NCBI GenBank assembly: GCA_020635905.1
Contig: JACJYV010000004.1
Span: 243,142-307,141, forward strand
DNA length: 64,000 bases
Origin: Bacteroidia bacterium
Lineage (GTDB): Bacteria; Bacteroidota; Bacteroidia; J057; JADKCL01
Reading direction: 5' to 3'
Translations under genes and position numbers: made by a program
Shown here: positions 5,143-62,877 of the stretch, one piece after another
Position numbering within the stretch: position 1 is the first letter of the stretch
Layout of the letters: every line of letters begins with the position of its first letter
The notes under the pieces: generated by a model
Seen by the model: the letters and a program-made list of their open reading frames with translations, nothing else
What the model was told of the DNA's origin: nothing
Databases searched by the model: none

Positions 5143-5256
5143 AAAATAGCCGTCAGCGATCAGCGTTCAGCCTAAACAGGAACTGGAAGATACTCACCCA
5201 AAATGGATCAGAATCCACAACGCAACCGTAAACCGTAAACCGTAAACTGGCTAAAA
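5143..5256. repeat. heptanucleotide-phased intergenic tract (R1)
   Basis: Fills the gap between convergent stops at 5142 and 5257. Parses as aaaatag ccgtcag cgatcag cgttcag cctaaac ... acgcaac cgtaaac cgtaaac cgtaaac tggctaa. Confidence 0.8.
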
Positions 5257-7918: not shown

Positions 7919-7934
7919 TCACTGATGGAACAAT

Positions 7935-7969
7935 AAAAAAGGCGTCCTCTTGCGGGGACGCCTTTTTTT
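7935..7969. terminator. bidirectional intrinsic terminator
   Basis: A-run, GGCGTCC(TC)/(GG)GGACGCC stem, then T7-run. Lies between the convergent gene ends at 7918 and 7987. Confidence 0.75.
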
Positions 7970-7986
7970 ATGCCTTGATTTTCCGG

Positions 7987-17899: not shown

Positions 17900-19345
17900 A
17901 TGTTCGGAATTGAAATCATTGAAGTAGCCCTCGGCCTGGCCCTGGTATATTTTGCCGTGAGCACCATTTGCTCGGGCATTTACGAAGCTTTTGCCCAGCT
18001 GACCGACAAACGCTCCAAGCACCTGGAAGACGGTATTCGCAAGTTTCTTAACGACGAAGCCACTTCCTCCAACCCCAGCGGACTGGCCACTGCACTCTAT
18101 TCAAATCCCGAAATCTGGTCGCGCCTGGAAGGAAAAATCGGCAAAAAAGACTGGATTGAAGCCTCTAAGTTCTCGGGGGTTCTATTCGATATTCTCGTGC
18201 CCAAAGACGAGGCCCAGGAATCAGATTTTGTGAAAAATCTGAAGTCAGAGATCAACAAAACCATGACTGATCCTGGTATTCAGAAAACGCTCAACCGCAT
18301 TGTGGGCGTGTTGGAAACCCCGATTGTGGGCACCCTAAAGGGCATTCTGGAGGATTATTACAAGGATTCGCCTCTCGCGGGCCAAATCATGGAGATTTTT
18401 CAGGGCATTGATCCTGCCACCCAGTGCAAAGACTGTTACGACGAATTGCTGGGCCGACTGCGCGCCCTGAATCTGCCTGATGGAGAGTTTGCTGCCGCAA
18501 AGGAAACCCTGGATGCCCTGGTGCGGGAAGGGGATAAGTTTGCCAATGTGAAAGAATTGATTCGCCTGCGCTTCTCCAATGACAAAATCGAGGAAGCGGC
18601 CCTCAATCTGGTGAGCAAATGGGAGGAAAGCGAAAAAATCATCAAATTCCGTACCCGGCTCGCCGACCGCCTGCGCGACAATAAAATACAAAAGACCCTG
18701 CTGGCCAAGATTGACGCCGCCGAGGGCAAAATCGCTGATGTACGCAAAACCATGGAATCCGTCTTTGATGAGGCCATGGGAGATGTGGGCAAATGGTATC
18801 GTGCCAATGTGCGCATGGTGATCCTGGTCCTCTCGGTGATCATCACTGTGGGTTTCAACGTAGATACCCTCGAACTGGGGCGTGAACTCTGGAACGACAA
18901 CGACCTGCGGGCCGCAACCCTGGTCACGGTGCAGCAGGTGGTGGAGAAAAAATCTGAGGTTTGGTCCCCCAAGCAAGACCCCAATGCAGTGGAAACTGCC
19001 CCTGGGGTGGAAGTAGCAGAGGCCGATACCAGTGGCGGTCAAACTGTTTCCGAACTTCCCGAACCTACTCCCGCGGACACCAGTGGAAAATCCATTGGTG
19101 AAATTCTCCAGGAAGCACAGGTGGCCGTGGATAAAATGGAAACCCTGCCCGTCGGCTGGAATTTTAATGGCAATTTCTGGGACCTCAACTTCAGCAAAGG
19201 TAAAACGGGCAATAAACTCTGGGCTTCCATTCTGCTGAAAATTCTGGGCTTTGTAATGACCATCGCCGCAGCGTCTCTTGGTGCACCCTTCTGGTATAAT
19301 CTGCTCAAAAGCCTCACCAGCCTGAAGGACAAGATAGCCAAGTAA
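17900..19345 (+). CDS. hypothetical membrane protein
   Basis: 481 aa. One N-terminal TM, a long charged helical middle, then two further TM segments (MVILVLSVIITVGF; ILLKILGFVMTIAAASLGAPFWY). No motif I can name. Confidence 0.5.
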   Translation: MFGIEIIEVALGLALVYFAVSTICSGIYEAFAQLTDKRSKHLEDGIRKFLNDEATSSNPSGLATALYSNPEIWSRLEGKIGKKDWIEASKFSGVLFDILVPKDEAQESDFVKNLKSEINKTMTDPGIQKTLNRIVGVLETPIVGTLKGILEDYYKDSPLAGQIMEIFQGIDPATQCKDCYDELLGRLRALNLPDGEFAAAKETLDALVREGDKFANVKELIRLRFSNDKIEEAALNLVSKWEESEKIIKFRTRLADRLRDNKIQKTLLAKIDAAEGKIADVRKTMESVFDEAMGDVGKWYRANVRMVILVLSVIITVGFNVDTLELGRELWNDNDLRAATLVTVQQVVEKKSEVWSPKQDPNAVETAPGVEVAEADTSGGQTVSELPEPTPADTSGKSIGEILQEAQVAVDKMETLPVGWNFNGNFWDLNFSKGKTGNKLWASILLKILGFVMTIAAASLGAPFWYNLLKSLTSLKDKIAK

Positions 19346-19490
19346 TCAATTAACAATTAGCAGAGAGCAATGAACGGAAATCAATTGTCAATTAGCAGAG
19401 AGCAATGAACCTTTGCTTCTTCTCTTACATCTGATATCTAACTGTCTAAAATCTAATTGTCTGACATCTAAAATCTAATTCTCTAAAATC
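19346..19490. repeat. heptanucleotide-phased intergenic tract (R2) with 35-bp higher-order repeat
   Basis: Runs stop-to-stop between convergent genes. tcaatta acaatta gcagaga gcaatga acggaaa is repeated 35 nt later; then come tctaaaa/tctaatt-type units. Confidence 0.8.
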
Positions 19491-25924: not shown

Positions 25925-25997
25925 GCTTCGGGCTGCCCCAGGCTTCAAGCCAATTGAGGAACTTACAACTCACAACTTACAACTAATCCCCAACCAA
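25925..25997. repeat. heptanucleotide-phased intergenic tract (R3)
   Basis: Runs stop-to-stop. Parses as gcttcgg gctgccc caggctt caagcca attgagg aacttac aactcac aacttac aactaat. Confidence 0.75.
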
Positions 25998-26864: not shown

Positions 26865-27037
26865 GTTCAGATTTTAGATTTTAGATGGATAGATTTTAGA
26901 GGTTAGTCTTGAGTCCTTAGTCCTTAGAGGTAAGATAAAAGACAGTTCAAGTTTCGCCACTCGCCACTCGCCACTCGCCACTTGAAACTCTGAACTTACA
27001 ACCACCCGCTCGCAGCTCGAAGCCAGCAGCTTGAAGC
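26865..27037. repeat. heptanucleotide-phased intergenic tract (R4)
   Basis: 23 consecutive units between the galU start and the MIOX stop. 11 end in AG, 7 in AC (including TCGCCAC x4) and 5 in GC. Only 3 units are not exactly 7 nt. Confidence 0.85.
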
Positions 27038-27850
27038 CTAAAAATAAACGGGGGCTTTGCCGAGATATTTCTCAATGATGGGCTGATAATACTCCATCAG
27101 TTGGTCGAGGTTGTAGGTGACGGGAGCTTTGGTGTACAGATCAAACAGGTTGAATTCGCGCACCCACTCTTTGTACTGCTCGTCGCGGTCATCATCGAGG
27201 AGGGAATAGGCTCCGTGGCTGTGCCAGGGGTAAAATGAGTGGTAACGGACCATGATCATGCCCGCTTCAGGGATGCGGTTTTCTGGATGGTGGCTCAGCA
27301 CCTGAAACAGATATTCGTCGTGTCCCCAGGCTTTGAGGCAATTGTCAATGCCGCAATTGGCTTCGTACATGCCCAGGGGGGTAAAATAATCCGGGTTTTC
27401 CATGTCGGGATTCAACTCATTGAATTCGGGAAAAACCACGCCCTGCGGCAGCTGACATCCCACCAGAAAAATATCGCCCACCAGGCCCCATTGCTCTTTG
27501 AGCGAGGTGCCGTCCTCGTCGCAACCCCACAGGTACATGACCTTGCCCAGGTCATGGATGAGGGCCACCAACTGAAACCAATCGGGTTTTCCGGCACGTC
27601 TGGCGCCTTCTGCGGCCTGCAAAAGGTGCTGTACATTGGGCAGGTCCATGTCGGGATCGCTGAGATCCACGAAGTCATTCAGGCCCTCCAGGGCCTGACG
27701 GATGGTCATGGGATGGTCGAAGGTCAGGTATTTGGCCTGCATCCTTCTGACGTAGGCAACCGTCTGATTTTGGCGCATTTTGCGGTAATTTTCGCGCACA
27801 GCGGGCAGCAAATGCCCGGTTTCGTAATTGCGGAATTGGGTCTTTTCCAT
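27038..27850 (-). CDS. myo-inositol oxygenase
   Basis: About 270 aa with MIOX/HD-type di-iron motifs: LIHDLGKV, AWGHDEY, RYHSFYPWH, and C-terminal DLYTK. Trimmed to ATG 27850; the longer ORF reads into the MITE. Confidence 0.85.
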   Translation of the reverse strand: MEKTQFRNYETGHLLPAVRENYRKMRQNQTVAYVRRMQAKYLTFDHPMTIRQALEGLNDFVDLSDPDMDLPNVQHLLQAAEGARRAGKPDWFQLVALIHDLGKVMYLWGCDEDGTSLKEQWGLVGDIFLVGCQLPQGVVFPEFNELNPDMENPDYFTPLGMYEANCGIDNCLKAWGHDEYLFQVLSHHPENRIPEAGMIMVRYHSFYPWHSHGAYSLLDDDRDEQYKEWVREFNLFDLYTKAPVTYNLDQLMEYYQPIIEKYLGKAPVYF

Positions 27851-27867
27851 GGGGTGAAGATAATAAA

Positions 27868-27989
27868 GGGAACCTCTAAAAACAAAGAAGATCAAGGCGG
27901 ACGCAGGTGAAGAAAGCGGAGTTTACTACCGTAAATGAGCATTTCTGAGCCAAGTCCAACGCAGAGATTCGAAGTTTGTAGAGGTTCCC
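27868..27989 (+). mobile_element. MITE-like 122-bp element, copy 2
   Basis: GGGAACCTCTAAAAAC ... GTTTGTAGAGGTTCCC, with 15 of 16 TIR positions matching. Flanked by the direct duplication TAAA (27864-27867 and 27990-27993). Confidence 0.72.
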
Positions 27990-33935: not shown

Positions 33936-34021
33936 GTTGCGAGCCTTTAGCTGCGAGCTGCAAGCAAAATTCTCGCCACTCGAAACTCGCCACTCGAACC
34001 TCACTACTCGAACCTCGCTAC
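33936..34021. repeat. heptanucleotide-phased intergenic tract (R5)
   Basis: 12 units in perfect phase with no indel, running stop-to-stop: gttgcga gccttta gctgcga gctgcaa gcaaaat tctcgcc actcgaa actcgcc actcgaa cctcact actcgaa cctcgct. Confidence 0.85.
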
Positions 34022-35389
34022 TCAAGAAAATACTTCTTTAAAGACTTCCTCCAGTCTTGAAAATCCTTTGATTTTAATGTTTTTGAATTTGCCTTCCAGG
34101 CCTTTGAGTTGGCGGGAGGAAAGGTAAATTTCCTTGAAACCCAGCTTTTCAGCTTCGCTGATACGCTGTTCAATGCGTTGCACGGCTCTCAATTCGCCGG
34201 CCAGGCCCACTTCAGCGGCAAAAACCCGCGTTTTGTCAATTGGCAGGTCGTGGGCCGAACTGATCACTGCGAGAATCAGCCCCAGGTCCAGGGCTGGGTC
34301 ATCGACCCGAATGCCGCCCGCCATGTTGATAAACACGTCTTTGGTGCCCATTTTGAAGCCGCAGCGCTTTTCCAGCACGGCCAGCAGCATATTCAGTCTG
34401 CGCAGATCAAAGCCAGTGGCAGACCGTTGGGCAACCCCATAGGCCATGGGCGTGACCAGGGCCTGGGTTTCGATCAAAAGGGGCCGCAGGCCCTCCATAG
34501 TGGCGCTGATGGCCACCCCACTGAATTCCTCGTCGCCCGTGGAAAGGAAGATTTCTGAAGGATTATTCACTTCCCGCAAACCGCCGCTGTGCATTTCATA
34601 AATACCCAGCTCGAGGGTGGAGCCAAAGCGGTTTTTTACCGTGCGCACCACCCGAAAATTGTGGTGGCGATCGCCTTCAAAAGTCAGAACGGCATCCACC
34701 GTGTGTTCCAGCACCTTGGGACCAGCCAGGTGACCTTCCTTGGTGATGTGTCCTACCAGAAAGACGGGCACCTGGCTTTGCTTGGCCAGCCGCATGAAGC
34801 GGGAAGCGCATTCGCGGACCTGGGAAACGCTGCCCGGGGCTGAGTCAAGTTCCTCGGTATAAACGGTTTGGATGGAATCAATGATCAGTAGTTCGGGCTT
34901 GAGTTCGTGGAAAGAATGGATGATTTTCTCCATGCTGGTTTCGGCCACGATGTACAGGTCGGGATTGACGGAAGCAATGCGGTCGGCCCGCATTTTGATC
35001 TGTCGCTCAGATTCCTCGCCAGATACGTACAGGGTTTTCAACCCGTTGAGCTGAAGGGCCACCTGAAGCAGGAGGGTTGATTTTCCTATTCCTGGTTCGC
35101 CGCCCAGCAGAATGATCGATCCCAACACAATTCCCCCGCCCAGCACACGGTTCATCTCAGCATCAGGCACCAGAATCCGTTTCTCCTCAATGGAATCGAT
35201 TTCCACTAATGGTCTCGGCTTGCTGGCTGGCGTGACGGGCATGGCAGACTGGCTGGCTGTTGCCGCACGTTTGTCCACGATTTCTTCCGTCAGGGTATTC
35301 CATTCACCACAAACCGAACACTGACCCTGCCATTTTCCATGATTGGCCCCACAACTGCTGCAGATGAATACGGTTTTTAATTTTGACAT
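34022..35389 (-). CDS. radA: DNA repair protein RadA/Sms
   Basis: N-terminal C4 zinc finger (CSSCG...CSVCGEW), Walker A GEPGIGKST, KNRFG motif and a Lon-like C-terminal domain. Confidence 0.95.
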   Translation of the reverse strand: MSKLKTVFICSSCGANHGKWQGQCSVCGEWNTLTEEIVDKRAATASQSAMPVTPASKPRPLVEIDSIEEKRILVPDAEMNRVLGGGIVLGSIILLGGEPGIGKSTLLLQVALQLNGLKTLYVSGEESERQIKMRADRIASVNPDLYIVAETSMEKIIHSFHELKPELLIIDSIQTVYTEELDSAPGSVSQVRECASRFMRLAKQSQVPVFLVGHITKEGHLAGPKVLEHTVDAVLTFEGDRHHNFRVVRTVKNRFGSTLELGIYEMHSGGLREVNNPSEIFLSTGDEEFSGVAISATMEGLRPLLIETQALVTPMAYGVAQRSATGFDLRRLNMLLAVLEKRCGFKMGTKDVFINMAGGIRVDDPALDLGLILAVISSAHDLPIDKTRVFAAEVGLAGELRAVQRIEQRISEAEKLGFKEIYLSSRQLKGLEGKFKNIKIKGFSRLEEVFKEVFS

Positions 35390-35509
35390 AACGTTTTACG
35401 GTTTACGGTTTACGGTTTACGGTTTACGGTTCTATGTTGTAAGTTCCCACAAGGTGGTGCCTTTGGCATGAGTTGTAAGTTGATAGGTAATTTCTCTAAT
35501 CTCTAATCT
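35390..35509. repeat. heptanucleotide-phased intergenic tract (R6)
   Basis: TACGGTT x5 (35397-35431), then gtaagtt / tgtaagt units, then tctaatc tctaatc. Runs from the radA start codon to the upstream gene's stop. Confidence 0.85.
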
Positions 35510-39842: not shown

Positions 39843-39931
39843 TTTTTCAGATAGGAGATTTTCAGAGGCTAGTCCTTAGTCGTTAGTCCTTAGTCGTTAG
39901 TCGTTGGGGATGGCTCGTCGCTCGCAACTCG
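39843..39931. repeat. heptanucleotide-phased intergenic tract (R7)
   Basis: Parses as agtcctt agtcgtt agtcctt agtcgtt agtcgtt ggggatg gctcgtc gctcgca. Runs from the aroC start codon to the MlaD-like stop. Confidence 0.8.
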
Positions 39932-40906
39932 TTACTCCTCCTCATACAATTTCTGTTTGCCGCTGAGGGTCATGGAAACGTGGATACGTTTGGTTCGCAG
40001 ATGCTCCAGGGTTTTGTTCAGGTTTTTGACGGTTTCGTCCAGATCACTGGCAAATTTTTCGTCATAAAGCACTTTTCCCATGAGGGTATTTTTGTCCTTG
40101 CTTTGCGCCAGCAACTCTTCCACAGAAACCATCAGTCCTTCTGTTTGTTTGAGCATTTCAGCCAGACTTCCCATCAGGCTATCTGCTTTGGGTAGGGAAT
40201 TTTCCTTTACCCCCTGACTGATCGATCGCACGTCCTCCATGGTCAGTTTGGCTTCGTCGGCCAGGTCGTTCATTTTCACCAATGCGCTGTCCACCTTGGT
40301 AACCAGCCTTTTTTGTTCCACCTGACCCAGAATGCGATTGAGTTTGTCAGCTGCGCCTGAAAGGTCAGAAACCGTGCCGGCCAGTTCGCCCGTATTGATT
40401 TCGCGGCTCAGTTCGCCCACCGCGCGGGTTACGTCCTTCACACTTTGAAAAAGGCTGTCCATGGCGCCTGGCGAAATTCCCTGCATCATGCCGCCAAACT
40501 GAGAAAAAGCTGTGCTGAAATCCATGGCCGTATTTCCCCTGATACGGGCGCCAGGATTGAGCTTATTGCCCTGATTTCCAGGATATAGTTCAATCATTTT
40601 ACCCCCAGTCAGTTCTTTGATGCGGATTTCTGCGCTGGCATTTTCAAACAGACTTACCTCTTCATTGAGGGCAATTTCCACCAACGCGCCATCCTGTGCC
40701 AGGGAAATGGACTTCACTTTGCCAGATGGGAGCCCGAAAACATTGATTTTATCATTGGTTTTGAGGCCGGCCACATTGTCGAACAGAATGGTATAGGTCT
40801 GGGCTGATTCCGCAAAAAAATGGATGCCCTTTCCCCAGGCAATGAACAGATAGAGGGCGAGGATACCGCCAAGGACGGTCATACCTATTTTTGTTTCCCG
40901 TTTCAA
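39932..40906 (-). CDS. MlaD/MCE-family protein
   Basis: 324 aa. N-terminal KRETKIGMTVLGGILAL anchor, MCE beta-barrel region (GLKTNDKINVFGLPSGKV) and a long helical C-terminus. TTG start 1 nt after the upstream stop. Confidence 0.75.
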   Translation of the reverse strand: MKRETKIGMTVLGGILALYLFIAWGKGIHFFAESAQTYTILFDNVAGLKTNDKINVFGLPSGKVKSISLAQDGALVEIALNEEVSLFENASAEIRIKELTGGKMIELYPGNQGNKLNPGARIRGNTAMDFSTAFSQFGGMMQGISPGAMDSLFQSVKDVTRAVGELSREINTGELAGTVSDLSGAADKLNRILGQVEQKRLVTKVDSALVKMNDLADEAKLTMEDVRSISQGVKENSLPKADSLMGSLAEMLKQTEGLMVSVEELLAQSKDKNTLMGKVLYDEKFASDLDETVKNLNKTLEHLRTKRIHVSMTLSGKQKLYEEE

Positions 40907-44175: not shown

Positions 44176-44252
44176 AGGTAGCGGTCAGCTTTTAGCAGTC
44201 AGCGGTCAGCGGTCAGCAATCAGCAATCAGCAATCAGCAGTCAGCGTTCAGG
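44176..44252. repeat. heptanucleotide-phased tract (R8)
   Basis: 11 in-phase units starting at the base after the stop: aggtagc ggtcagc ttttagc agtcagc ggtcagc ggtcagc aatcagc aatcagc aatcagc agtcagc gttcagg. Confidence 0.85.
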
Positions 44253-44353
44253 CATCACCCCAATTAATGTTTCTTACTATCTGGAAGACATCAATTTGCA
44301 ATCCTGATTTATCCCCCTAATTTTACATCGTTCAATAATTTCGCAAATAACTT

Positions 44354-45560: not shown

Positions 45561-45577
45561 TAATAATCAACAGAAAT

Positions 45578-45610
45578 AAAAAACCCGGCAGTGATCCTGC
45601 CGGGTTTTTC
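45578..45610. terminator. bidirectional intrinsic terminator
   Basis: A6, CCCGGCAG tgatc CTGCCGGG, T5. Lies between the convergent ends at 45560 and 45638. Confidence 0.8.
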
Positions 45611-45637
45611 TTTGCGTAGATTTTTCAATCTCCGGGT

Positions 45638-47080
45638 TTACATTCCTTCCGTGAAAGTCTCAAACGACAGTTTGAGATAGGGGAGAATGGCGTTGGTACC
45701 CTTATTGCTTTCCTCAAATTCCTCCAGCAGTTTTTTGAGTTGCTGCAGTTTCTTGGTGGTCCGTCCGCCCTGGCGGTTGGTCAGGATTTTTAGGAAAATA
45801 CGTCCATTTTCGTAATTCGAGAAGGTGGACTTTTTCAACTGCCTTTGCAGACTGAGGATCAATTGGTTGGCCAGGTCACTTTCGCCCAGCAGCACGTAGG
45901 AAAGAGCCAGGAACATTTTGACTTCCACATCCACATGCGGGTTTTTGCGCAGGCTCACCTCGTTGCGCACCCGGTAAAGGATACGGGAGGAATTTTCAAA
46001 ATCCTTCTTATAAAAGGAGGCGTAAGCCTTGAAAAGGTTGAAATTGATGTAGGTAACCAGACGGTAGGAATCAATTTCGATTTTATCAATGTACTCAGCG
46101 ATATCCTGTTGCAGGAGGTCGAGTGTGCCATATTCCTGGTGACGCAGCAGTTTGAAAAACAGGATGGAAGAGCAATCCATGCCAAAGTTGAAGCCCTTGA
46201 GCAGGTCTTCAATCTTATAGTCCAAAAGTTCGAAGTAGATCTGCTCGCGGTCGCGGTCTCCGTTTCTGCGGTAGTAGGTATAGCGCAAAAAGTCGAAAAT
46301 CAGGTTGAGGTTTTTGAAAAGAATGTCGTCAGGATTTTTTTCCAGGATTTCGAAAGACTTCTCAAACAACTCATTATCAGATTCCATGATCACGCTCATG
46401 CGGTCGGGCAGTTCCACAAACTGACTGGAAAAGAGGTGGATGATGGCCATGGAAATAAACAGCCTCTGCGAGGTGTAGAGGTTGTTTTGGTTGTGAATTT
46501 TCTCAACCGTGCGAATCAACTCGTTATAGTCGCGTTCACGGCGGGCCAGGTAATAGCGGTCGTAAATGCGGAAAAAAGTCATCACGGTCTCCATGGCCTT
46601 GTCATTGGCCAGGTAAAAGGCGACCGCCTGATTATACTTCTGGTCGTACTCCACCCGATGGTTGTCATCGTGGCTGTGCAGCATTTTCAGCGCCCTGTAC
46701 ACCACCATCAGCACGAGGGAGTTGTCCTCGTCCAGCATGGTTTTTTCCAGCCTTTTGAGGGTGGTAACGGCGATTTCGCGGGGACTTTGAAAGATCAGGT
46801 CATATACTTTGAACACCTTCTGGATGGCCTCCATTTTGGGGTCTCCCAAACGGTTCAACAAAAAATCCTCAACTTTCTGGTTGAGGCGTGATTTGAGTAC
46901 ATAAAAGGCGGATGCAGAAATTTCCTGTTTTTCCAGGAAGTCCTCGACGGGATTATCGCTTTCCCGAATGGTTTTCAGGAAGAGCGCGCTCTTCTCAGCT
47001 TTGTTTGATGTAAGGTTTTGGTAAATATCAAGAAACTCCTCGTCAGAAAGTTGTTTGATGATCGTGTACAGTGCATCCAT
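45638..47080 (-). CDS. hypothetical protein, all-helical (TPR-like?)
   Basis: 480-aa ORF with good coding appearance. Rich in K/E/L/Y/F, with no TM segment or signal peptide. No motif I can name. Confidence 0.5.
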   Translation of the reverse strand: MDALYTIIKQLSDEEFLDIYQNLTSNKAEKSALFLKTIRESDNPVEDFLEKQEISASAFYVLKSRLNQKVEDFLLNRLGDPKMEAIQKVFKVYDLIFQSPREIAVTTLKRLEKTMLDEDNSLVLMVVYRALKMLHSHDDNHRVEYDQKYNQAVAFYLANDKAMETVMTFFRIYDRYYLARRERDYNELIRTVEKIHNQNNLYTSQRLFISMAIIHLFSSQFVELPDRMSVIMESDNELFEKSFEILEKNPDDILFKNLNLIFDFLRYTYYRRNGDRDREQIYFELLDYKIEDLLKGFNFGMDCSSILFFKLLRHQEYGTLDLLQQDIAEYIDKIEIDSYRLVTYINFNLFKAYASFYKKDFENSSRILYRVRNEVSLRKNPHVDVEVKMFLALSYVLLGESDLANQLILSLQRQLKKSTFSNYENGRIFLKILTNRQGGRTTKKLQQLKKLLEEFEESNKGTNAILPYLKLSFETFTEGM

Positions 47081-47286: not shown

Positions 47287-47334
47287 TTTAGTTTAGTTAG
47301 TTTAGTTGGTTTGTTAGTTTAGTTAGTTGGTTGG
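47287..47334. repeat. low-complexity TTTAG/TTAG/TTGG tract
   Basis: tttagtttagttagtttagttggtttgttagtttagttagttggttgg. Less regular than the heptad tracts. Confidence 0.6.
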
Positions 47335-47365: not shown

Positions 47366-48154
47366 TTAGCGGGCATTTTTCTTGGCCTGCTCCCAGTACA
47401 CATCCATCTCTTTCAGGTTCAAATCCTTCAGATTTTTCCCCTCCTTTTCAATGGCTTCCTCAATGAATTCAAAACGCTTTTTGAATTTGTGGTTGGTGCG
47501 GTTGAGGGCGTCGTCGGGATTGATGCCAATGAAGCGGGCATAATTCACAAGGGAAAAAAGAATATCCCCAAATTCGTCTTCCAGCTTTTCCTTTGCGGCA
47601 CCCTTTTCGGCTTCTTCCTTGAATTCGCCCAGTTCTTCCTGCACCTTCAGCCACACATCCTGAGGATTATCCCAATCAAAACCCACATTCCTCACTTTCT
47701 CCTGAATGCGCAGGGCCTTGATCAGGGAAGGCATGCTGTTGGGCACTCCATCGAGCACCCGTTTCTTCTTCTGATTCTTCTTTTCGGCCATTTTGATCTC
47801 CTCCCAATTACGCAAAACCTTGTCTGTGGAGTCGGCCTGCACATCGCCGTAGATATGAGGGTGACGGCGAATCAGCTTTTCTGTGAGGGTGGTGATCATC
47901 TCTTCCGTGGAAAATTTGTTTTCTTCCTCCCCAATGCGGCTGTAAAACAAGACATGCAGGAGAATATCCCCCAATTCCACCTTCATTTCGTCCCAGTCGT
48001 CGTCCAGGATAGAATCTGAAAGCTCGTAAACCTCTTCAATGGTGAGGTGACGGAGACTTTCGCGGGTTTGCTCCTTGTCCCAGGGGCATTTTTCCCTGAG
48101 TTCGTGGACCACTTCAAAAAGACGGGAGAAGGCAGGAAGGAGCTGTTCATTCAT
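47366..48154 (-). CDS. mazG: nucleoside triphosphate pyrophosphohydrolase MazG
   Basis: 262 aa with two MazG repeats: EEVYEL...E.GD.L and LQEELGEFKEE...EFGDILFSLVN. Confidence 0.9.
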   Translation of the reverse strand: MNEQLLPAFSRLFEVVHELREKCPWDKEQTRESLRHLTIEEVYELSDSILDDDWDEMKVELGDILLHVLFYSRIGEEENKFSTEEMITTLTEKLIRRHPHIYGDVQADSTDKVLRNWEEIKMAEKKNQKKKRVLDGVPNSMPSLIKALRIQEKVRNVGFDWDNPQDVWLKVQEELGEFKEEAEKGAAKEKLEDEFGDILFSLVNYARFIGINPDDALNRTNHKFKKRFEFIEEAIEKEGKNLKDLNLKEMDVYWEQAKKNAR

Positions 48155-48181: not shown

Positions 48182-48564
48182 TAAAAAAAAAGCCCCTGGT
48201 TAAGGATTCCCGGGGCATGTCTGAAAGTGATTTGGTGAAAAAAAGGAAGGTACTACTATGAAAAAGGCGTGTTTGTAAACTGAAAAAAAGTGGTTCGAAA
48301 TAACTTCTAAAGTGGAGGTTCGGGTTCAATTTGGGTAAAATTTTTCTTCATACCCTTGCTTTTGGCCTGAACGGTCAGTTTTGGGGTGACAATGGAAATA
48401 ATCATTTCATGAAAGGAAATATTACTCAACAGAAATCGTTAGCAATGTCACAACCACGCTTGAATTTCCCCGTTTAAGATTTTCCCGCATTATTTTCCCG
48501 CATTAAATTTCGCGCAATTTGTTTTCTGACTCCTGAAAACTGCTTTCCTTCATTGAATTATTCA

Positions 48565-51500
48565 ATGAAAAGGAGGAAATTCAACTTCAAATACTACGAA
48601 ATGTCACACCTCAGCCGTCTCTTTCTCACTGTTTTAGGAGCAGCCACCCTGCTGATTCTTATTTCCGCATTTCAACCCAAACCCCACAAACACAAGCCCA
48701 TGCTTACTTTTCAGCCCGGGGACACCTACGAAGACCTTTGGAAAAAGGTGGATTCCCTCAAAAATCAGGGCTTGCCCGAGTCGGCCCTGGAAGTGGTCAA
48801 CCTGATTTACGGCAAGGCCAGCCAGGATCACAACGACGCCCAGGTGGCCAAATCTTTGATTCACGTGATGCTTTTTACCGCGGCGAAGGAGGAGGAATCC
48901 ATTGTGAAAAATATTGGTCGCATGGAGGAAGAGATCAAGAAGGCACATTTTCCCCTGAAACCCGTGCTGCAATCCATGCTGGCTGAAAGCTATTATTCCT
49001 ATTACAGCAATAATTACTGGCGATTTCAAAATCGCTCAGAGACGGTCAGTTTTGACAATCTGGACATCCGTACCTGGGACCTGACCAAGGTCAGGAATGA
49101 GATTTACGCCCTGCACCAGGCCGCTTTGGAAAACAGGGACAGCCTCAAAAGAACCCCTCTTTCCCTTTTCAACGACATTCTCCAGTTGCAAACTGGCAGC
49201 CAGGATTACCGCGGCACCCTGTTCGATTTTCTGGCTCACCGCGCCATTTCCTTCTATTCCAACGACTTATTGCAGGTGAATCAGCCTGCCTGGAAATTTG
49301 ATCTGGACCAGGAAGAGGTGTTTTTGCCCGCCAAACAGTTTGCCAAACTGCAAATAACCACCCGCGACACTGGCTCCAATAAGTATAATGCCTTTTTGCT
49401 GTATCAGGATCTGGTTGATTTCCATTTAGGAGACACGGATCCCATGGCCCTGATTGATCTGGAGCGAAATCGCCTGACCTGGATGCGGTCCCATTCCGTG
49501 CTGGGTTATGCAGACAGTCTTTACCTGCAGGCTCTGGTCAGTCTGGAGAAAACCTATCCCAATCATCCTGAGATTGCCCAGGTGGGCTACGACATTGCCC
49601 GTCATTTAAACGAGCAGGGTGGCCAGTACACCCCAGGTTCTGAGCACCCCAACCGTTGGAAAATCCGCGATGCCTGGCAAAAATGTGCCGAGGTAATCAA
49701 AACCTGGAAAGCAGAAAATCCCGGGGTAATCAATTGTAAATCCCTGCAAATCGAGATTGAAACCACTTCCATTTCCGTTACCCATGAGGAGGTAAATCTG
49801 CCCGGTCAACCTTGTCGTGCACTGGTGACCTATGATAATGTGCCCAAATTATACCTGAAACTGGCCCGCCTGGAGCCTCAGCAATGGGACAACCTCAGTA
49901 ATATCTACGACGAGCAAAAGCTGGAAGCCCTCAAAAAACTGCCCGTGGTGAAGGAATGGAGCCAGGATCTGCCATTGGAAGGCGATTACCAGAGCCACCT
50001 GGCCGAGATTGAGATTCCCGGCCTGGAACTGGGTGAGTACGTTTTGCTGGCTTCCTCCTCCAATGAATTCGTTTTCAATGAGCACCAGATTTCCTTTTCG
50101 CGCATCTGGTATTCCAATCTTTCCTACAGCGCCCGCCTCGACAATAAATACGATATGTCTGTGCTGGTGCAGGACCGCGAATCGGGCGAACCCCTGAAAG
50201 GGGCCAAAGTAAGGCTGCTCAACCGCGAATACGATTACAACAGCCGTTTGTATCGCTTCATTGAAAAGGGGAATTACACCACAGACGATCAGGGTTGGGT
50301 CAAAATTCCTGCTCCATCCTCAGGCAGCCGCTACTTTAATCTGGAAGTGCGCAATGGAAAAGATCGTCTCAGCCTGAACGACAGCTACAGCCAGTATTAT
50401 TCTTCGAATAATTCTCCTCAATCTGTCCTGAGAACCACCTTTTTTATGGATCGCATGATCTATCGCCCGGGGCAGACCATTTATTTCAAAGGTCTGGTGC
50501 TGGAATTCAAGGGCGAAAATGCTTCCCTGAAAACCAATTACAAAACCACGGTTTATTTCATAGATCCCAATTATCAAACTGTTTCCACCCTCGAAGTGAC
50601 CACCAATGAATATGGAACATTCAGTGGCACTTTTACCGCTCCCCTGGGCCAGCTCAACGGGCAGTTTCACCTGCAGGACGGCAACAGTTCCCAGTATTTC
50701 AGGGTGGAAGATTATAAGCGACCCAAATTTGAAGTGAAATTCGAGCCTGTAAAAGGGAGTTTTGCCCTGGGCGGGCTGGTCAAAGTGAAGGGAAATGCCC
50801 TGGCTTACGCGGGTTCTACCATTGACGACGCCAAAGTGGCTTACCGCGTGGTGCGTCAGACCCGTTTTCCTTGGTGCTGGGGCTGGAGATGGTATCCCAG
50901 CACGGCCGACATGGAAATCACTTCAGGAGAGGTGAAAACAGACGCTGCGGGTGATTTTGAAATCGAATTCAATGCCATTCCCGACAAATCTGTGAGCAGC
51001 AAATACCTGCCTCAGTTCAATTTCATCGTCTATGCAGACGTGACGGACGTTTCAGGCGAAACCCATTCCACCCAAACTTACGTGAATGTGGGCTACGTAG
51101 CCCTGAATGCAGATTTGGTCCTGCCTGCCCAACTCGACAAGGACACAAAGTATAAAGGATTTGCCATTCGCACCACCAACCTGAACGGACAGTTCGAGCC
51201 CGCCAAAGGCAGCATTTCCCTGCAAAAACTCCGTTCTCCCAATCGTCTCATGCGCAATCGCCTGTGGGCCAAACCCGACATGTTTGTAATGAAGAAAGAG
51301 GAATTTTTGCAGAAATTTCCCCTGGATATCTACGATAATGAGGCCGATCACACACAATGGGAAGTGGAAAAGGAGGTATTCAAAACCCAGTTTGACACAG
51401 AAAAGGACGACTCACTGCAAATTCCAGGGCTGAAAGACTTTGCCGAAGGCATGTACAAAGCCATCCTGAAAACGAAGGATAAATTCGGCAAGGAAGTGAG

Positions 51501-54500
51501 CAAGGAATACTTTGTGCAGGTCTTTCAGGCCTCAGGTAAGAAGGTGGCTTTGCCCGTCATGAGCACGTTTGTGGACCGCAAAGTGATGGCTGAGCCTGGC
51601 GAAAAAGCTTCCATTCAGGTGGGAACTGCAGCTCAAAAAGTGAAGGTATTGTGCGAGGTGGAATGGAAGGGAACCGTGGTTAAACAGGAATGGATCACCC
51701 TCAACAATGAAAAAATCAATTACGAGCAATTGATTCCTGAAAATTATCGCGGGAACTTCAGTCTGAATTTTCATTTTGTACGCCATGGCCGCCGTGAAAG
51801 CCACCAGCGGGTGGTCACTGTACCCTGGACCAATAAACAGTTGAAACTGGAATTTGAAACCTTCCGCGACAAACTGGAGCCAGGTGCCAAAGAGGAATGG
51901 AAAGTGAAAATTGCAGGCCCGGGCGGTGAAATGGCCGCTGCAGAAATGGTGGCTGCCATGTATGACGCCTCTCTGGACGCATTCGCCCCCAATTATTTCA
52001 GCTTTTCCTGCTATCCCATCCATTATTCCTATCTCAACTGGCAGCACAGCAGTGGATTTTCCAGTGAGACGGGCTCAATTCTGAACCATTATTACAACCG
52101 TGGCATTGGGTACAGAAATCAGTCTTATGATTATCTGAACTGGTTTGGCTATACCCTGGGATACAATTATTTCAACTATCGCTACAAAAGCGTTTCCCGC
52201 AGCGGGGCCGTTTTTGATGCAGAGGGGGATTTTGGTGGTGCTGAATTGGAGGAATCTGGTAATGCTGACGGCTGGGCGGATGATATGGACAAAGATGCAC
52301 CTGCACCCATGGAAAAAAGTGTCCTTTCCAAGGAATCTGCAGAGGACGAGACCCTGTCTGCAGGAGAGAATCGCAGGGAAGTTCAGCAGAAGAATCTGGA
52401 TGGTAAATTGGGAGGAGATCAGGGTGAAGTGAGCATCCGTACCAATCTCAATGAAACAGCCTTTTTCTTCCCTCATTTGCGAACCAATGAAAAAGGGGAA
52501 GTCATTTTCTCCTTTACCATGCCCGAAGCCCTTACCCGCTGGAAATTTTTGGGTTTTGCCCACACCAAAGACCTGAAATACGGTCAGATGAGCGGGGAAA
52601 CCGTCACCCAGAAAGAACTGATGGTGATGCCTCACCGTCCTCGTTTTTTCCGGGAAAATGACCGCATTGTCTTTACTGCAAAAGTTTCAAATCTGGCCGA
52701 AAATGCCCTCAATGGTACTGCCAAACTGGAATTGTACAACGCCCTGAACATGGAGCCCGTGGATGCCATTTTCGGCAACAGCAATTCAAGCCGTAATTTT
52801 TCCGTGGAAAAAGGCCGCAGCACGGGTCTGGAATGGGAACTGACCATTCCAGAAGGGGTTCAGGCCGTGACCTATCGTGTGATTGCCCGTGCGGGCAATC
52901 ATTCAGACGGGGAGGAAGATGCCCTTCCCGTACTCACCAACCGCATGTTGGTGACTGAGGGACTGCCGCTACCCTTGCGCCCCCGACAGAAAAAGGATTT
53001 CACCTTTACCAAACTGGTGGAAAATAAATCCACCACCCTCAAACACCAGAAAATTACTCTGGAATTTACCTCCAATCCTGCCTGGTACGCGGTGCAGGCC
53101 CTGCCTTACCTCATGGAATACCCCTATGAGTGCGCAGAACAGACCTTCTCCCGTTTCTACGCCAACAGTCTGGCTACCCACGTGGCCAATTCTCATCCCC
53201 GCATCAAGCAGGTGTTTGAAAGCTGGAAAAACACAGATAAGGAAGCCCTGCTCTCCAACCTGGAGAAAAATCAGGAACTCAAATACCTCTTGCTGGAGGA
53301 AATGCCCTGGGTGTTGAATGCCCAGGATGAAACTGAGCGCAAGAAAAGGGTGGGACTGCTCTTTGATCTCAATAAAATGGCCTCAGAACTGGAATCAGCG
53401 CTGAAAAAGCTGCAGAAATCCCAGGCCTCCAACGGAGGCTGGCCCTGGTTTCCGGGCATGCCCGACAATCGCTACATCACCCAGCATATTGCAACGGGGC
53501 TTGGGCACCTGGATCACCTCGGGGTAAAAAATGTACGCGAAGACAGCAAAACCTGGACCATGACCCAAAGTGCGCTTCGTTACCTGGATGACCGCATCCG
53601 CGAAGATTATGAATTATTGCTGAGGTATAAGGCAGATTTGAGCAAAAACCACCTGGGACAGCTTCAGTGCCAATATTTGTATGCCCGTTCCTATTTCAAA
53701 GATGTACCTGTGAGTAAGCAAAATCAGGTGGCATTTGATTACTACCTGAAGCAGGCAGAAACCTACTGGCTCGATCAGGGCAAATACACCCAGGGGATGA
53801 TTGCGCTGGCCCTGCATCGTTATGAAAAGCCGCAAACTCCTGCCAAAATCATCAAATCCCTGAAGGAACATTCCCTCAAAAACGAGGAAATGGGCATGTA
53901 CTGGGCCGACAACACAGGCGGCTGGTACTGGTACCAGGCCCCCATAGAAACCCAGGCCCTCCTGATCGAGGCCTTTGATGAGGTCGCCAATGACCAGGCT
54001 TCCGTGGAAGAAATGAAACTCTGGTTGCTCAAACAAAAGCAGACCACTGACTGGAAAACCACCAAGGCCACGGCTGAAGCCTGCTATGCCTTGCTGCTGC
54101 GCGGCACTGATCTGCTGGCTGAATCCAAACTTGCTGAAATCACCATGGGAGGTCAGAAAATCGATCCCACGACCATGGAAGATGTGAAAGTGGAGGCGGG
54201 CACAGGCTATTTCAAAACCTCCTGGACTGGCAAGGAGATCACGCAGGATTTGGGTAAAATTTCGGTGAATAATCCCAATAATGTGGCAGCCTGGGGCGCG
54301 GTTTACTGGCAATATTTCGAGCAACTGGATAAAATTACTTTTGCAGAAACGCCCCTGAAGTTGTCCAAAGAGCTGTTTCGGGAGGAAATGACCGACCGTG
54401 GACCCATTTTGCGTCCGCTGAAAGCGGGCGCAGTGCTCACCCCGGGTGACAAAGTCAAGGTGCGCATTGAGATTCGCACTGACCGCGATCTGGAGTACGT

Positions 54501-54771
54501 GCACCTGAAAGACATGCGGGCCAGCGGATTTGAGCCCATCAACGTGCTGTCACAGTACAAGTACCAGGATGGGCTGGGCTATTATGAAAGCACCCGGGAC
54601 GCGGCCACCAACTTCTTCATCTCCTGGTTGGGAAAAGGGACCTACGTGTTTGAGTACCCCCTGCGGGTCAGCCACAAAGGTGACTTCTCCAACGGCATCA
54701 CCACCATTCAGTGCATGTATGCACCCGAATTCACCGCCCACTCAGAAGGAGTGCGGGTAGTGGTAAAGTAG
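48565..54771 (+). CDS. alpha-2-macroglobulin family protein with thioester motif
   Basis: About 2,068 aa. Repeated MG-type beta domains, the thioester site YPYECAEQT (CAEQ at 53131-53142), and a C-terminal receptor-binding-like domain. The start could be TTG 48553, ATG 48565 or ATG 48601. Confidence 0.9.
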   Translation: MKRRKFNFKYYEMSHLSRLFLTVLGAATLLILISAFQPKPHKHKPMLTFQPGDTYEDLWKKVDSLKNQGLPESALEVVNLIYGKASQDHNDAQVAKSLIHVMLFTAAKEEESIVKNIGRMEEEIKKAHFPLKPVLQSMLAESYYSYYSNNYWRFQNRSETVSFDNLDIRTWDLTKVRNEIYALHQAALENRDSLKRTPLSLFNDILQLQTGSQDYRGTLFDFLAHRAISFYSNDLLQVNQPAWKFDLDQEEVFLPAKQFAKLQITTRDTGSNKYNAFLLYQDLVDFHLGDTDPMALIDLERNRLTWMRSHSVLGYADSLYLQALVSLEKTYPNHPEIAQVGYDIARHLNEQGGQYTPGSEHPNRWKIRDAWQKCAEVIKTWKAENPGVINCKSLQIEIETTSISVTHEEVNLPGQPCRALVTYDNVPKLYLKLARLEPQQWDNLSNIYDEQKLEALKKLPVVKEWSQDLPLEGDYQSHLAEIEIPGLELGEYVLLASSSNEFVFNEHQISFSRIWYSNLSYSARLDNKYDMSVLVQDRESGEPLKGAKVRLLNREYDYNSRLYRFIEKGNYTTDDQGWVKIPAPSSGSRYFNLEVRNGKDRLSLNDSYSQYYSSNNSPQSVLRTTFFMDRMIYRPGQTIYFKGLVLEFKGENASLKTNYKTTVYFIDPNYQTVSTLEVTTNEYGTFSGTFTAPLGQLNGQFHLQDGNSSQYFRVEDYKRPKFEVKFEPVKGSFALGGLVKVKGNALAYAGSTIDDAKVAYRVVRQTRFPWCWGWRWYPSTADMEITSGEVKTDAAGDFEIEFNAIPDKSVSSKYLPQFNFIVYADVTDVSGETHSTQTYVNVGYVALNADLVLPAQLDKDTKYKGFAIRTTNLNGQFEPAKGSISLQKLRSPNRLMRNRLWAKPDMFVMKKEEFLQKFPLDIYDNEADHTQWEVEKEVFKTQFDTEKDDSLQIPGLKDFAEGMYKAILKTKDKFGKEVSKEYFVQVFQASGKKVALPVMSTFVDRKVMAEPGEKASIQVGTAAQKVKVLCEVEWKGTVVKQEWITLNNEKINYEQLIPENYRGNFSLNFHFVRHGRRESHQRVVTVPWTNKQLKLEFETFRDKLEPGAKEEWKVKIAGPGGEMAAAEMVAAMYDASLDAFAPNYFSFSCYPIHYSYLNWQHSSGFSSETGSILNHYYNRGIGYRNQSYDYLNWFGYTLGYNYFNYRYKSVSRSGAVFDAEGDFGGAELEESGNADGWADDMDKDAPAPMEKSVLSKESAEDETLSAGENRREVQQKNLDGKLGGDQGEVSIRTNLNETAFFFPHLRTNEKGEVIFSFTMPEALTRWKFLGFAHTKDLKYGQMSGETVTQKELMVMPHRPRFFRENDRIVFTAKVSNLAENALNGTAKLELYNALNMEPVDAIFGNSNSSRNFSVEKGRSTGLEWELTIPEGVQAVTYRVIARAGNHSDGEEDALPVLTNRMLVTEGLPLPLRPRQKKDFTFTKLVENKSTTLKHQKITLEFTSNPAWYAVQALPYLMEYPYECAEQTFSRFYANSLATHVANSHPRIKQVFESWKNTDKEALLSNLEKNQELKYLLLEEMPWVLNAQDETERKKRVGLLFDLNKMASELESALKKLQKSQASNGGWPWFPGMPDNRYITQHIATGLGHLDHLGVKNVREDSKTWTMTQSALRYLDDRIREDYELLLRYKADLSKNHLGQLQCQYLYARSYFKDVPVSKQNQVAFDYYLKQAETYWLDQGKYTQGMIALALHRYEKPQTPAKIIKSLKEHSLKNEEMGMYWADNTGGWYWYQAPIETQALLIEAFDEVANDQASVEEMKLWLLKQKQTTDWKTTKATAEACYALLLRGTDLLAESKLAEITMGGQKIDPTTMEDVKVEAGTGYFKTSWTGKEITQDLGKISVNNPNNVAAWGAVYWQYFEQLDKITFAETPLKLSKELFREEMTDRGPILRPLKAGAVLTPGDKVKVRIEIRTDRDLEYVHLKDMRASGFEPINVLSQYKYQDGLGYYESTRDAATNFFISWLGKGTYVFEYPLRVSHKGDFSNGITTIQCMYAPEFTAHSEGVRVVVK

Positions 54772-54947
54772 CTGCAAGCTACGAGCTGGGGGCTGCCTGC
54801 TTCGGGCATCTGGCTGGAAGCTATTATCGGCCAGCGGTCAGTTGGCAAAGTAAAGCAAATGGGTTTTGCTAATCCATTCAATACTAAGGACTCAGGACTC
54901 CCGACTAAGGACTATTCTCTAAAATCTGACATCTAAAAATCTAACAT
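54772..54947. repeat. heptanucleotide-phased intergenic tract (R9)
   Basis: Exactly 25 units (24 x 7 nt plus one 8-nt unit = 176 nt) fill the gap from the stop at 54771 to the convergent stop at 54948. 16 units start with CT. Confidence 0.9.
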
Positions 54948-55454
54948 CTAAATCTTTACAAATCCCGACCTCAGATACTGATTTCCTTTGGAAATGAGGA
55001 TGCGATAATCGCCTTCGCGCAGGGATTCCACGTCGAGCAGGAGCAGGTTTTTGCCTTCGCGGGCGCTGTAAACCTCAGAGTGGCGGACGCGGTTGCGCTT
55101 ATTGATGATGTTGACGTGCAGGGGCGCACGCATTTTGGATTCAAAGGTGATGGTGACCAGGTAAGCCTGCTTGCCGGGATTCTGGGAAACATTGACCAAC
55201 AGGTCACTAAACAGGTCTGAGTTGGTGCGCACCCGCTTCAACTGACGGGAATTCAGGTGGCTTACGGGGTTGGAAACAGCCTCAGTGGGCTGATATTTAG
55301 GGGTTTGCAGCAGGCAGGGATGGTTGGCTTCTCCTTCGCAGGCATAGGGTGATTGGGCAAAAAGGCCGAAACCCATGCTGATAAAAATCGCACCAAACAG
55401 AAAAATACGAAGATTTGCCCCAAAAGCGGGCCAGAAAGGGGTCGAAGGAATCAT
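54948..55454 (-). CDS. small secreted protein, possible T9SS C-terminal sorting domain
   Basis: 168 aa with a hydrophobic N-terminus. The C-terminal beta-rich segment (LHVNIINKRNRV...LLLLDVESLREGDYRILISKGNQYLRSGFVKI) resembles Por secretion tails. Confidence 0.45.
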   Translation of the reverse strand: MIPSTPFWPAFGANLRIFLFGAIFISMGFGLFAQSPYACEGEANHPCLLQTPKYQPTEAVSNPVSHLNSRQLKRVRTNSDLFSDLLVNVSQNPGKQAYLVTITFESKMRAPLHVNIINKRNRVRHSEVYSAREGKNLLLLDVESLREGDYRILISKGNQYLRSGFVKI

Positions 55455-55580
55455 ACTTAATAAAACAGCCTAAAACTGAGGCTAAATTTCGCGAATATTT
55501 CAATAAAAGGAAATTCCTCCTTGACCAAAGACAGGGATTGTGGATAAATGGTGGAAAAAGGGGAGGGGAAAAGAAGGCAC

Positions 55581-55613: not shown

Positions 55614-55691
55614 TGGGGTGGGAGACGGGATTCGAACCCGCGACCTTCGGAACCACAATCCGACGCTCTAACCGACTGAGCTACAACCACC
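55614..55691 (-). tRNA. tRNA-His (anticodon GUG) with encoded G-1 and CCA
   Basis: Manual fold: G-1, acceptor GUGGUUG, D arm GCUC/GAGC, anticodon loop UUGUGGU, T arm GCGGG-UUCGAAU-CCCGU, then 3' CUCCCAC-C-CCA. Pairs 5:68 (U-C) and 6:67 (U-U) are mismatched. Confidence 0.8.
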
Positions 55692-62776: not shown

Positions 62777-62851
62777 GCAATTGGGCGAATTCCTTATTTA
62801 TATACAATTAAGTACGATTTTTCAGACTTAGTGTCATAAAGACATTTTGCT

Positions 62852-62859
62852 TATATTTG
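62852..62859 (+). promoter_or_regulatory. Bacteroidota-type -7 promoter box (TATATTTG) for the GH13 gene
   Basis: Perfect TAnnTTTG, 18 nt upstream of ATG 62878. Confidence 0.55.
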
Positions 62860-62877
62860 CGCATAAATCATAATCTT

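Follow-up and report, generated by a model that had tools for sequence, protein, structure and literature searches.

We have analysed the 176-nucleotide (nt) spacer that separates an alpha-2-macroglobulin-like (A2M-like) gene from a convergent open reading frame (ORF) in a 64-kb stretch of DNA, hereafter the window, from an uncultured Bacteroidia metagenome-assembled genome (MAG). This spacer is put together as a mosaic from four short runs of heptamers, and each of its ends is phase-locked to its own stop codon and not to the opposite end. The runs belong to a genome-wide family of 7-nt periodic arrays that is restricted to spacers containing a gene 3' end and whose register sets in at the stop codon, and the same runs recur in the same order in collinear paralogous copies elsewhere in the window. 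The A2M spacer is probably one copy of a polar composite element made of short heptamer runs, that is, slippage-driven and mostly neutral or selfish DNA whose total length is unconstrained.

Heptamer runs in the A2M spacer and across the window

The A2M-like ORF (48553..54771, + strand) ends in a TAG at 54769-54771 and the convergent ORF (54948..55454, - strand) in a TAG that is seen as CTA at 54948-54950. Re-deriving both ORF ends returned the spacer of 176 nt (54772..54947) at the coordinates that a first-pass annotation had assigned to it. The heptamer periodicity proposed in that annotation is also real: the self-match of the gap at a lag of 7 nt is 0.497 and that of the neighbouring lags 0.18-0.29 (other lags about 0.25), giving z = 7.2 with none of 5000 dinucleotide-preserving shuffles as high. 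CT is found 15 times in one phase (shuffle mean 5.7, maximum 10) and 16 times when one 8-mer is permitted, which agrees with the reported count of 16 out of 25 units starting with CT. The exact fit of 25 heptamers between the two stops is false, since 176 = 25x7+1 and an 8-mer (CTAAAAAT, 54933-54940) is needed, and it is best described as numerology. Furthermore, the 35 nt at 54849-54883 are aperiodic (lag-7 match 0.25, p = 0.65), so about 5 of the 25 units are merely chopped sequence, and the tract does not fit the gene boundaries as had been thought, because the right-hand run passes the convergent stop and the last codons of that ORF and reaches ~54960.

The four runs, which we call A to D, lie one after the other on the + strand around this aperiodic core. 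Run A (54770..54827) consists of about eight AGCT-type heptamers (AGCTGCA, AGCTACG, AGCTGGG, GGCTGCC, TGCTTCG, GGCATCT, GGCTGGA, and AGCTATT); its lag-7 match, 0.55 over 54772-54827, is reached by none of 10000 shuffles, and it aligns with the stop-proximal portion of another spacer of the window (27037-26865, - strand). The A2M stop TAG (54769..54771, + strand) is the first in-phase element of this left run, being matched by AAG at +7 and GAG at +14, with GGG next in the series. Run B (54828..54848; CGGCCAG, CGGTCAG, and TTGGCAA) has a lag-7 match of 0.64 and belongs to the family of an AGCGGTC/AGCAGTC array at 44180-44251. The core that follows (54849..54883) holds a small hairpin, AGCAAA / TTTGCT, at ~54852-54872. 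Run C (54884..54918; lag-7 match 0.64) is made of about five GGACTAA-type units, which read TCCTTAG on the - strand, and was called by Tandem Repeats Finder (TRF) at 54883-54914 with 4.6 copies and 76% matches; its family recurs at 26903-26927 and 39870-39905. Run D (54919..54960; lag-7 match 0.54, p = 0.006) has about 5.5 AAAATCT-type units (ATTTTAG on the - strand), was called by TRF at 54918-54952 with 4.9 copies, contains the 8-mer and spans the stop and last codons of the convergent ORF, and its family recurs at 19445-19491 and 26869-26900. On the - strand the N4-TAG units of runs D and C keep the phase of the convergent ORF's own TAG, which matches at +7 in 3/3 bases. In the A2M sense the order is thus stop, AGCT-type, CAGCGGT-type, 35-nt core, GGACTAA-type and finally AAAATCT-type at the convergent stop, and the registers of the two ends differ by a 1-nt slip.

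Period 7 is dominant in the window as a whole, where 294 sliding windows show a self-match of at least 0.6 compared with 1-32 for periods 5, 6, 8, and 9. TRF found 13 period-7 arrays of at least 3 units, all of them intergenic, and the exact arrays (6 in 64 kb vs 16 in other loci that total 1.1 Mb and are mostly from Bacteroidota) are ~6.5x denser here. The AAACCGT, GGACTAA, AAAATCT, ACTCGCC, and AGCGGTC families are each present at 2-4 loci of the window, and about 10 kb of extra sequence of the same genome, taken from Logan contigs, added no further array. For the classification of spacers we used a mechanical gene map (longest non-overlapping ORFs) that was corrected and extended by Logan gene calls, and the ORFs flanking the spacers are real genes according to Pfam or NCBIfam matches, most of them having Pfam domains. 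Among spacers of at least 60 nt, arrays are borne by 5 of the 9 convergent and 4 of the 19 tandem ones and by none of the 11 divergent ones (Fisher p = 0.008 for convergent vs divergent and 0.033 for 3'-end-containing vs divergent), and all nine array-bearing spacers, out of ~39 in and around the window, hold a gene 3' end. Their lengths modulo 7 are 2, 5, 3, 2, 1, 5, 1, 5, and 3, never 0; there is no length quantisation among them.

Besides the A2M spacer and the loci related to it, which are treated below, arrays are found in three other convergent spacers and two tandem ones. The convergent spacer at 5143..5256 has TCAGCGA-type and AACCGTA runs and that at 25925..25997 GCT-type and AACTTAC runs. 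The one at 19346..19490 carries a 35-nt repeat at its left stop and AAAATCT-type units at its right stop; the repeat (19344-19410, 1.9 copies) begins exactly at the stop of the ORF 17900..19345, each of its units equals five heptamers ending in A, and it is followed by AAAATCT-type runs up to the stop of a convergent gene with a type IX secretion system (T9SS) plug domain. Regarding the tandem spacers, that at 35390..35509 has ACGGTTT x6 at the start of RadA and TCTCTAA x3 at the stop of an ABC ATPase gene, and that at 44176..44353 (+ strand) has about 10 AGCGGTC/AGCAGTC/AGCAATC units beginning 4 nt after the stop. At two places, 26864-26869 (an NTP-transferase gene) and 35389-35391 (RadA), the runs come as close as 1-4 nt to the start codon of the following gene, and because of this the entire 5' leader of these two genes is repeat DNA.

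Register on stop codons and collinear copies

The first-pass annotation had suggested that the tract might be laid down relative to the ORF ends, and this survives in part: the register starts at each stop, but the two ends are not jointly locked. To describe the register, the sense strand was chopped into heptamers from each stop codon at the 14 gene ends next to array-bearing spacers. In the resulting meta-profile the lag-7 match is 0.18-0.32 over the last 48 coding nt, 0.50, 0.50, and 0.64 at the three stop bases and 0.42-0.67 over the next 70 nt, whereas at 18 gene ends beside array-free spacers it stays at 0.17-0.32. The stop bases match downstream bases at 0.55 for lag 7, 0.45 for lag 14, 0.36 for lag 21, and 0.38 for lag 28; the other lags mostly yield 0.14-0.31, with higher values for lag 15 (0.40) and lag 22 (0.38). 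For the four coding bases ahead of the stop the lag-7 match is 0.29, and the binomial p for the stop match is about 4e-4 (computed on 22/42). We considered that the register could be a by-product of calling the first in-frame stop, and rejected this because the periodicity would then reach upstream of the stop, which it does not. Most of the in-phase triplets downstream are one-base variants of a stop (CAG, AAG, GAG, CGA, and TTA); of the 14 ends, only 3 have a true stop at +7, and one or two have one at +14. The sense strand is polar as well, with AG exceeding CT in phase at 10 ends, CT exceeding AG at 2 and a tie at 2 (totals 55 vs 24), and convergent spacers therefore change polarity midway, as the one at 33936-34021 does.

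The A2M spacer has relatives in the same window. A whole copy of the composite, 173 nt long (26865..27037, - strand), lies in the sense of its upstream gene, MIOX (27038..27895, - strand), and aligns collinearly with the A2M spacer, z being 12.7 when plain shuffles are the reference and 6.5 when heptamer-block shuffles are, neither of them reached in 200 trials; in the opposite orientation the values are 1.4 and 2.6, with 4 of 200 shuffles reaching. A shorter copy (39843..39931, - strand), again collinear and in the sense of the upstream gene, which encodes a MlaD domain (39932..40906, - strand), gave z 15.9 and 8.0 against plain and block shuffles and 87.5% identity over 32 nt in blastn. A weak fourth relative in the sense of RadA (34022..35389, - strand) was recovered at 33936..34021 (- strand) with a profile built from the three copies (nhmmer E = 6e-4); all of its 86 nt are periodic, with a polarity switch in the middle of the spacer. 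The remaining array-bearing spacers of the window do not align with the A2M spacer. The module order common to the copies is AGCT- or GAGC-type at the stop, then GGACTAA-type, then AAAATCT-type, and the composite copies have in common a junction GGACTA-NN-CTCTAAAATCT. Unit numbers vary from copy to copy (GGACTAA-type 4-5, 3, and 5; AAAATCT-type 5, 4, and 1), and it is the A2M copy that carries the 1-nt slip. The flanks are unrelated, the similarity stopping with the heptamer runs, and the ends are ragged.

The spacer was also looked for behind A2M genes of other genomes. The best identity of the A2M C-terminal region was 69% in species-representative genomes, 69% in Joint Genome Institute metagenomes and 73-79% in a search of 5.8 billion proteins. 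At the two nearest loci (78% and 72% amino-acid identity in the C-terminal region) the downstream spacers are aperiodic and 91 and 139 nt long, one of them has a canonical terminator, and the 18 and 21 kb of sequence around them contain no period-7 array. Arbitrary lengths with no conserved phase, which the first-pass annotation had named as evidence against its reading, are thus what these relatives show, as far as they allow it to be judged. Among 156 distant A2M loci, 11 have period-7 runs within 200 nt of the stop, and at least 6 of these 11 (L117, L012, L068, L157, L043, and L062) hold pairs of inverted heptamer arrays that fold as long hairpins. These six genomes are mostly Bacteroidota, the arrays lie within the 60-170 nt that directly follow the stop of each A2M orthologue, and the hairpins amount to -42 to -61 kcal/mol over 170 nt; in L012, TCAGTCT x5 faces TGACTGA-type units. 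The longest heptamer array among the fetched loci, with about 20 GGAGACG/GGAGAAC units, is in an uncultured Bacteroidetes contig (L069, 3103-3247).

Origin of the runs and alternative explanations

The tract is an STRR-like (short tandemly repeated repetitive) heptamer assemblage, of a kind that is known in cyanobacteria, Beggiatoaceae and a few Bacteroidetes. The tract and the arrays consist of 7-nt head-to-tail repeats, are non-coding and occupy many loci with recurring families, as heptamer simple sequence repeats do. In cyanobacteria, STRR are families of heptamers that are repeated in tandem and dispersed between the genes of one genome in both orientations; to our knowledge, their function has not been established. 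In contrast to them, the host here is a Bacteroidia MAG and not a filamentous heterocystous cyanobacterium, and the runs are short (3-10 units) and degenerate. Heptamer tandem repeats in general have been on record from cyanobacteria for decades, and a few other phyla were added later, but we know of no accepted origin or function for them. Canonical STRR, TAACTGA, or G4 (GGGGATT) units were rejected as the identity of the runs, as the window has no tandem copies of them: TAACTGA occurs once, as a single copy, and tandem dimers of CCCCAGT, TTGGTCA, and CAACAGT are absent from both strands.

Among the long simple repeats of prokaryotes, heptanucleotides have been described as the commonest, and polymerase slippage has been proposed as their cause (Mrazek 2007, as summarised in PMC4679880); TAACTGA and other heptamer direct repeats have been reported from Beggiatoaceae, cyanobacteria, and five Bacteroidetes (MacGregor 2015; PMC4679880). 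The 'larger assemblages of heptamer repeats' that the latter work describes in intergenic regions, absent from close relatives, resemble the present ones in the passages of it that we draw on here: tandem 7-nt units, an intergenic position, several heptamers per spacer, a patchy distribution in Bacteroidetes, and related genomes with the same gene order but without the repeats. The TAACTGA sets of Beggiatoaceae are, according to the same passages, mostly found just upstream of start codons, whereas the runs described here are tied to stops and absent from divergent spacers, and those passages make no mention of phasing on stop codons or of collinear multi-module copies. With this window, an uncultured Bacteroidia lineage in which heptamer arrays are dense joins the groups known to have them. 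What goes beyond an ordinary simple repeat is the register that starts from the stop codon and the recurrence of whole multi-module spacers in the sense of the upstream gene; if both regularities hold genome-wide they will constrain any model of origin, and if they do not, the arrays are ordinary slippage debris.

Under the explanation that we favour, a slippage-driven composite element, the runs would lengthen and shorten by replication slippage in 7-nt steps, and tracts would survive only downstream of stop codons, because inside genes such steps would be frameshifts. The stop codon would then act as the fixed first unit, the sole triplet of the tract held by selection, and new units may be copied from it, or else deletions at microhomologies may join the stop, in phase, with a similar unit triplet. 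The decayed in-phase triplets (CAG, AAG, CGA, and TTA) point to copying followed by decay and not to stops that are maintained.

Several data weigh against this explanation. At three loci, and perhaps at a fourth, the same modules follow one another in the same order and orientation, and local slippage alone cannot yield collinear copies, so a copying or dispersal step is needed; slippage therefore leaves the spread of the multi-module spacer unexplained, which gives room to alternatives based on dispersal or on an RNA function. All 4 copies are in the sense of the abutting gene, and this polarity, together with the absence of arrays from divergent spacers, could equally reflect a function at the RNA level. 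The register was observed on one 64-kb window and 14 gene ends, with patterns that are partly post hoc, and at 21 array-adjacent ends of other Bacteroidota the stop anchoring is weaker (0.41 vs about 0.30). Finally, the collections searched contain no relative closer than 69-79% amino-acid identity in which unit gain and loss could be followed.

The spacer was also folded as RNA. On the + strand, 54767-54825 forms an imperfect 22-bp hairpin including 5 G-U pairs (-28.4 kcal/mol, z -2.44, 4 of 200 shuffles equally stable, minimum free energy structure at a frequency of 0.44), and the antisense of the same region gives -15.7 kcal/mol and z -0.62. This hairpin, formed by run A, starts inside the A2M stop codon, and its tail, AUUAUCGG, has no U-tract. 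The statement of the first-pass annotation that there is no terminator hairpin here is therefore inaccurate: a stable 22-bp sense hairpin does exist, but it lacks a U-tract and a terminator scan of 54772-54947 made no call, the spacer having neither a canonical terminator nor a promoter. It resembles an intrinsic terminator in being a stable sense-strand hairpin right after the stop of a long gene and differs from one in its long, imperfect, G-U-rich stem as well as in these two respects; genuine examples in the window, such as 45610-45578, are unlike it. Farther downstream, 54826-54884 forms two small hairpins (z -2.95 on the + strand and -0.24 on the - strand), and the + strand RNA has no structure over 54880-54965 (z +1.76), the composition of 54884-54960 being 19 C vs 8 G. 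Inverted repeats within the spacer amount to chance-level pairs only. Rfam gave nothing in 54650-55100 at E = 1 or better and, at gathering thresholds, nothing except a tRNA-His (55614-55690). Terminator-like matches across 1-60000 barely exceed those in shuffles. The hypothesis that arrays are hairpins in general was rejected, as the array-bearing spacers of the window (z -2.0 to +1.7) and the AGCT-type runs at 25925, 27037, and 33936 (z near 0) fold no better than shuffles. Because these related sequences are generally unstructured, we regard the predicted run-A hairpin as a candidate 3' structure only and not as an established terminator. As for the array-free convergent spacers, 7919-7986 and 45561-45637 have strong bidirectional hairpins (z -4.9/-4.8 and -3.2/-4.8, respectively); the one at 45610-45578 is flanked by A and T tracts, and no such hairpin is found in the array-bearing convergent spacers.

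Alternatively, the spacer might be a functional module of the 3' untranslated region (UTR), in which the stop-proximal hairpin protects or ends the A2M transcript and the distal tract, richer in C than in G and rich in A+U, loads Rho or an RNA-binding protein. The presence of the hairpin on the sense strand only, the unstructured C-over-G tract behind it, the orientation of every copy in the sense of the upstream gene, the restriction of arrays to spacers with a 3' end and the lack in array-bearing convergent spacers of the strong hairpins of their array-free counterparts are all consistent with such a role, as are the inverted-heptamer hairpins after the A2M orthologues of six distant genomes, mostly Bacteroidota. 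We nevertheless consider this explanation unlikely, given that the AGCT-type runs at three other gene ends fold like shuffles, that the hairpin has no U-tract, and that the tandem runs lying 1-4 nt from the next start (26864 and 35389) leave no room for a promoter after a terminator. Moreover, the excess of C over G on the sense strand is inconsistent in tandem spacers (+9, -13, -1, +5, -6, +1, and -1), and a Rho-loading composition as a general property of the arrays was rejected since the sign varies across them. Only tentatively can we propose that the heptamer tracts of this lineage, and to a weaker degree those of other Bacteroidota, are a class of polar 3' spacer elements, with the register taken from the upstream stop and a fixed module order, and not simple repeats placed at random. 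If this were true, their generation would be coupled to gene ends or they would have a role in the 3' UTR at the RNA level, and the inverted-heptamer hairpins after the six distant orthologues would be their structured form.

A dispersal step could be provided by a mobile repeat of the REP (repetitive extragenic palindromic) or MITE (miniature inverted-repeat transposable element) kind, in which a dedicated enzyme would copy the composite to new 3' ends and the heptamer runs would be its internal structure. REP and bacterial interspersed mosaic element (BIME) repeats are located after stops, in convergent or co-directional but not in divergent spacers, and are oriented to the upstream gene; the arrays described here share this pattern of locations, and the 3-4 collinear copies do have one orientation relative to that gene. 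However, these runs are direct repeats and not palindromes, their spacers fold like shuffles, neither the copies nor their surroundings contain palindromes or terminal inverted repeats, the flanks are unrelated with the similarity ending where the heptamer runs end, and there is no evident target duplication. No transposase is known to go with such runs, the enzyme having been looked for only among the ORFs scanned in the window. On balance, this origin appears quite improbable.

The stop-bearing units could also be thought of as a frame-independent barrier, since 7 = 1 mod 3 and three of them in a row cover all frames, where read-through or frameshifted ribosomes would be caught. The stop codon is indeed in phase with the units, and the stops at 5142, 35510, and 54948 have N4-TAG units behind them, but the scarcity of true stops at +7 and +14, the decay of most in-phase triplets and the existence of three unit families without any stop on the sense strand make a barrier very improbable. 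The proposal that length and phase are set jointly by both ORF ends, with a whole number of heptamers held between the stops, can be dismissed as scarcely credible: both gap ends do adjoin stop codons and two of the periodic blocks, 112 = 16x7 nt apart, do share a phase, but this is expected by chance 1 time in 7, and the constraint is contradicted by the extra nucleotide and its 8-mer, the aperiodic core, the lengths of the nine array-bearing spacers and those of the nearest orthologous spacers.

Flanking genes and minor observations

The A2M-like gene has Pfam MG2, A2M, and bMG10 domains, and its homologues align through the final residue of the protein, so its stop is native. The convergent ORF encodes a 168-aa protein that is annotated in GenBank (MCB9233073.1, H6581_15555) in a MAG named 'Bacteroidia bacterium'. 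Apart from a self-hit, no full-length homologue of this protein was found among 5.8 billion proteins, and it matches DUF3244 weakly and has a hydrophobic segment at its N-terminus. Its C-terminal 70 aa correspond to a domain that is repeated in, or terminates, proteins of 430-2250 aa, and the possibility that the ORF is spurious was rejected because the alignments with homologues of this domain stop only a few residues short of its end. We also rejected an assembly artefact as the source of the spacer, as a contig assembled independently from short reads (Logan, SRR12358675) shows no difference over the 301 nt compared (54700-55000 of the window). Two ORFs of the mechanical map at 62851-63972 were discarded as spurious in favour of an alpha-amylase gene that, according to the Logan gene calls, runs past the window end. 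The gene content includes T9SS and CHU-type OmpA.

Some other features were noticed near the A2M-like gene and its neighbours. A direct repeat, ATTTTCCCGCATT, is present in 2.7 copies at 48479-48516, in the region 37-74 nt ahead of the TTG codon with which the A2M-like ORF begins, and may be a regulatory repeat. Between an ORF (45638..47080, - strand) and a MazG-like gene (47366..48154, - strand) there is a TTAG/TTTAG tract (47287-47332; periods 4, 5, and 9), which is the sole sizeable non-heptamer simple repeat in the window. Finally, the tRNA-His gene is on the - strand, and downstream of it on that strand there is a terminator-like hairpin at 55466-55484 (TAGCCTCAGTTTTAGGCTG followed by TTTTATT), and the start of the 168-aa ORF comes just after it.

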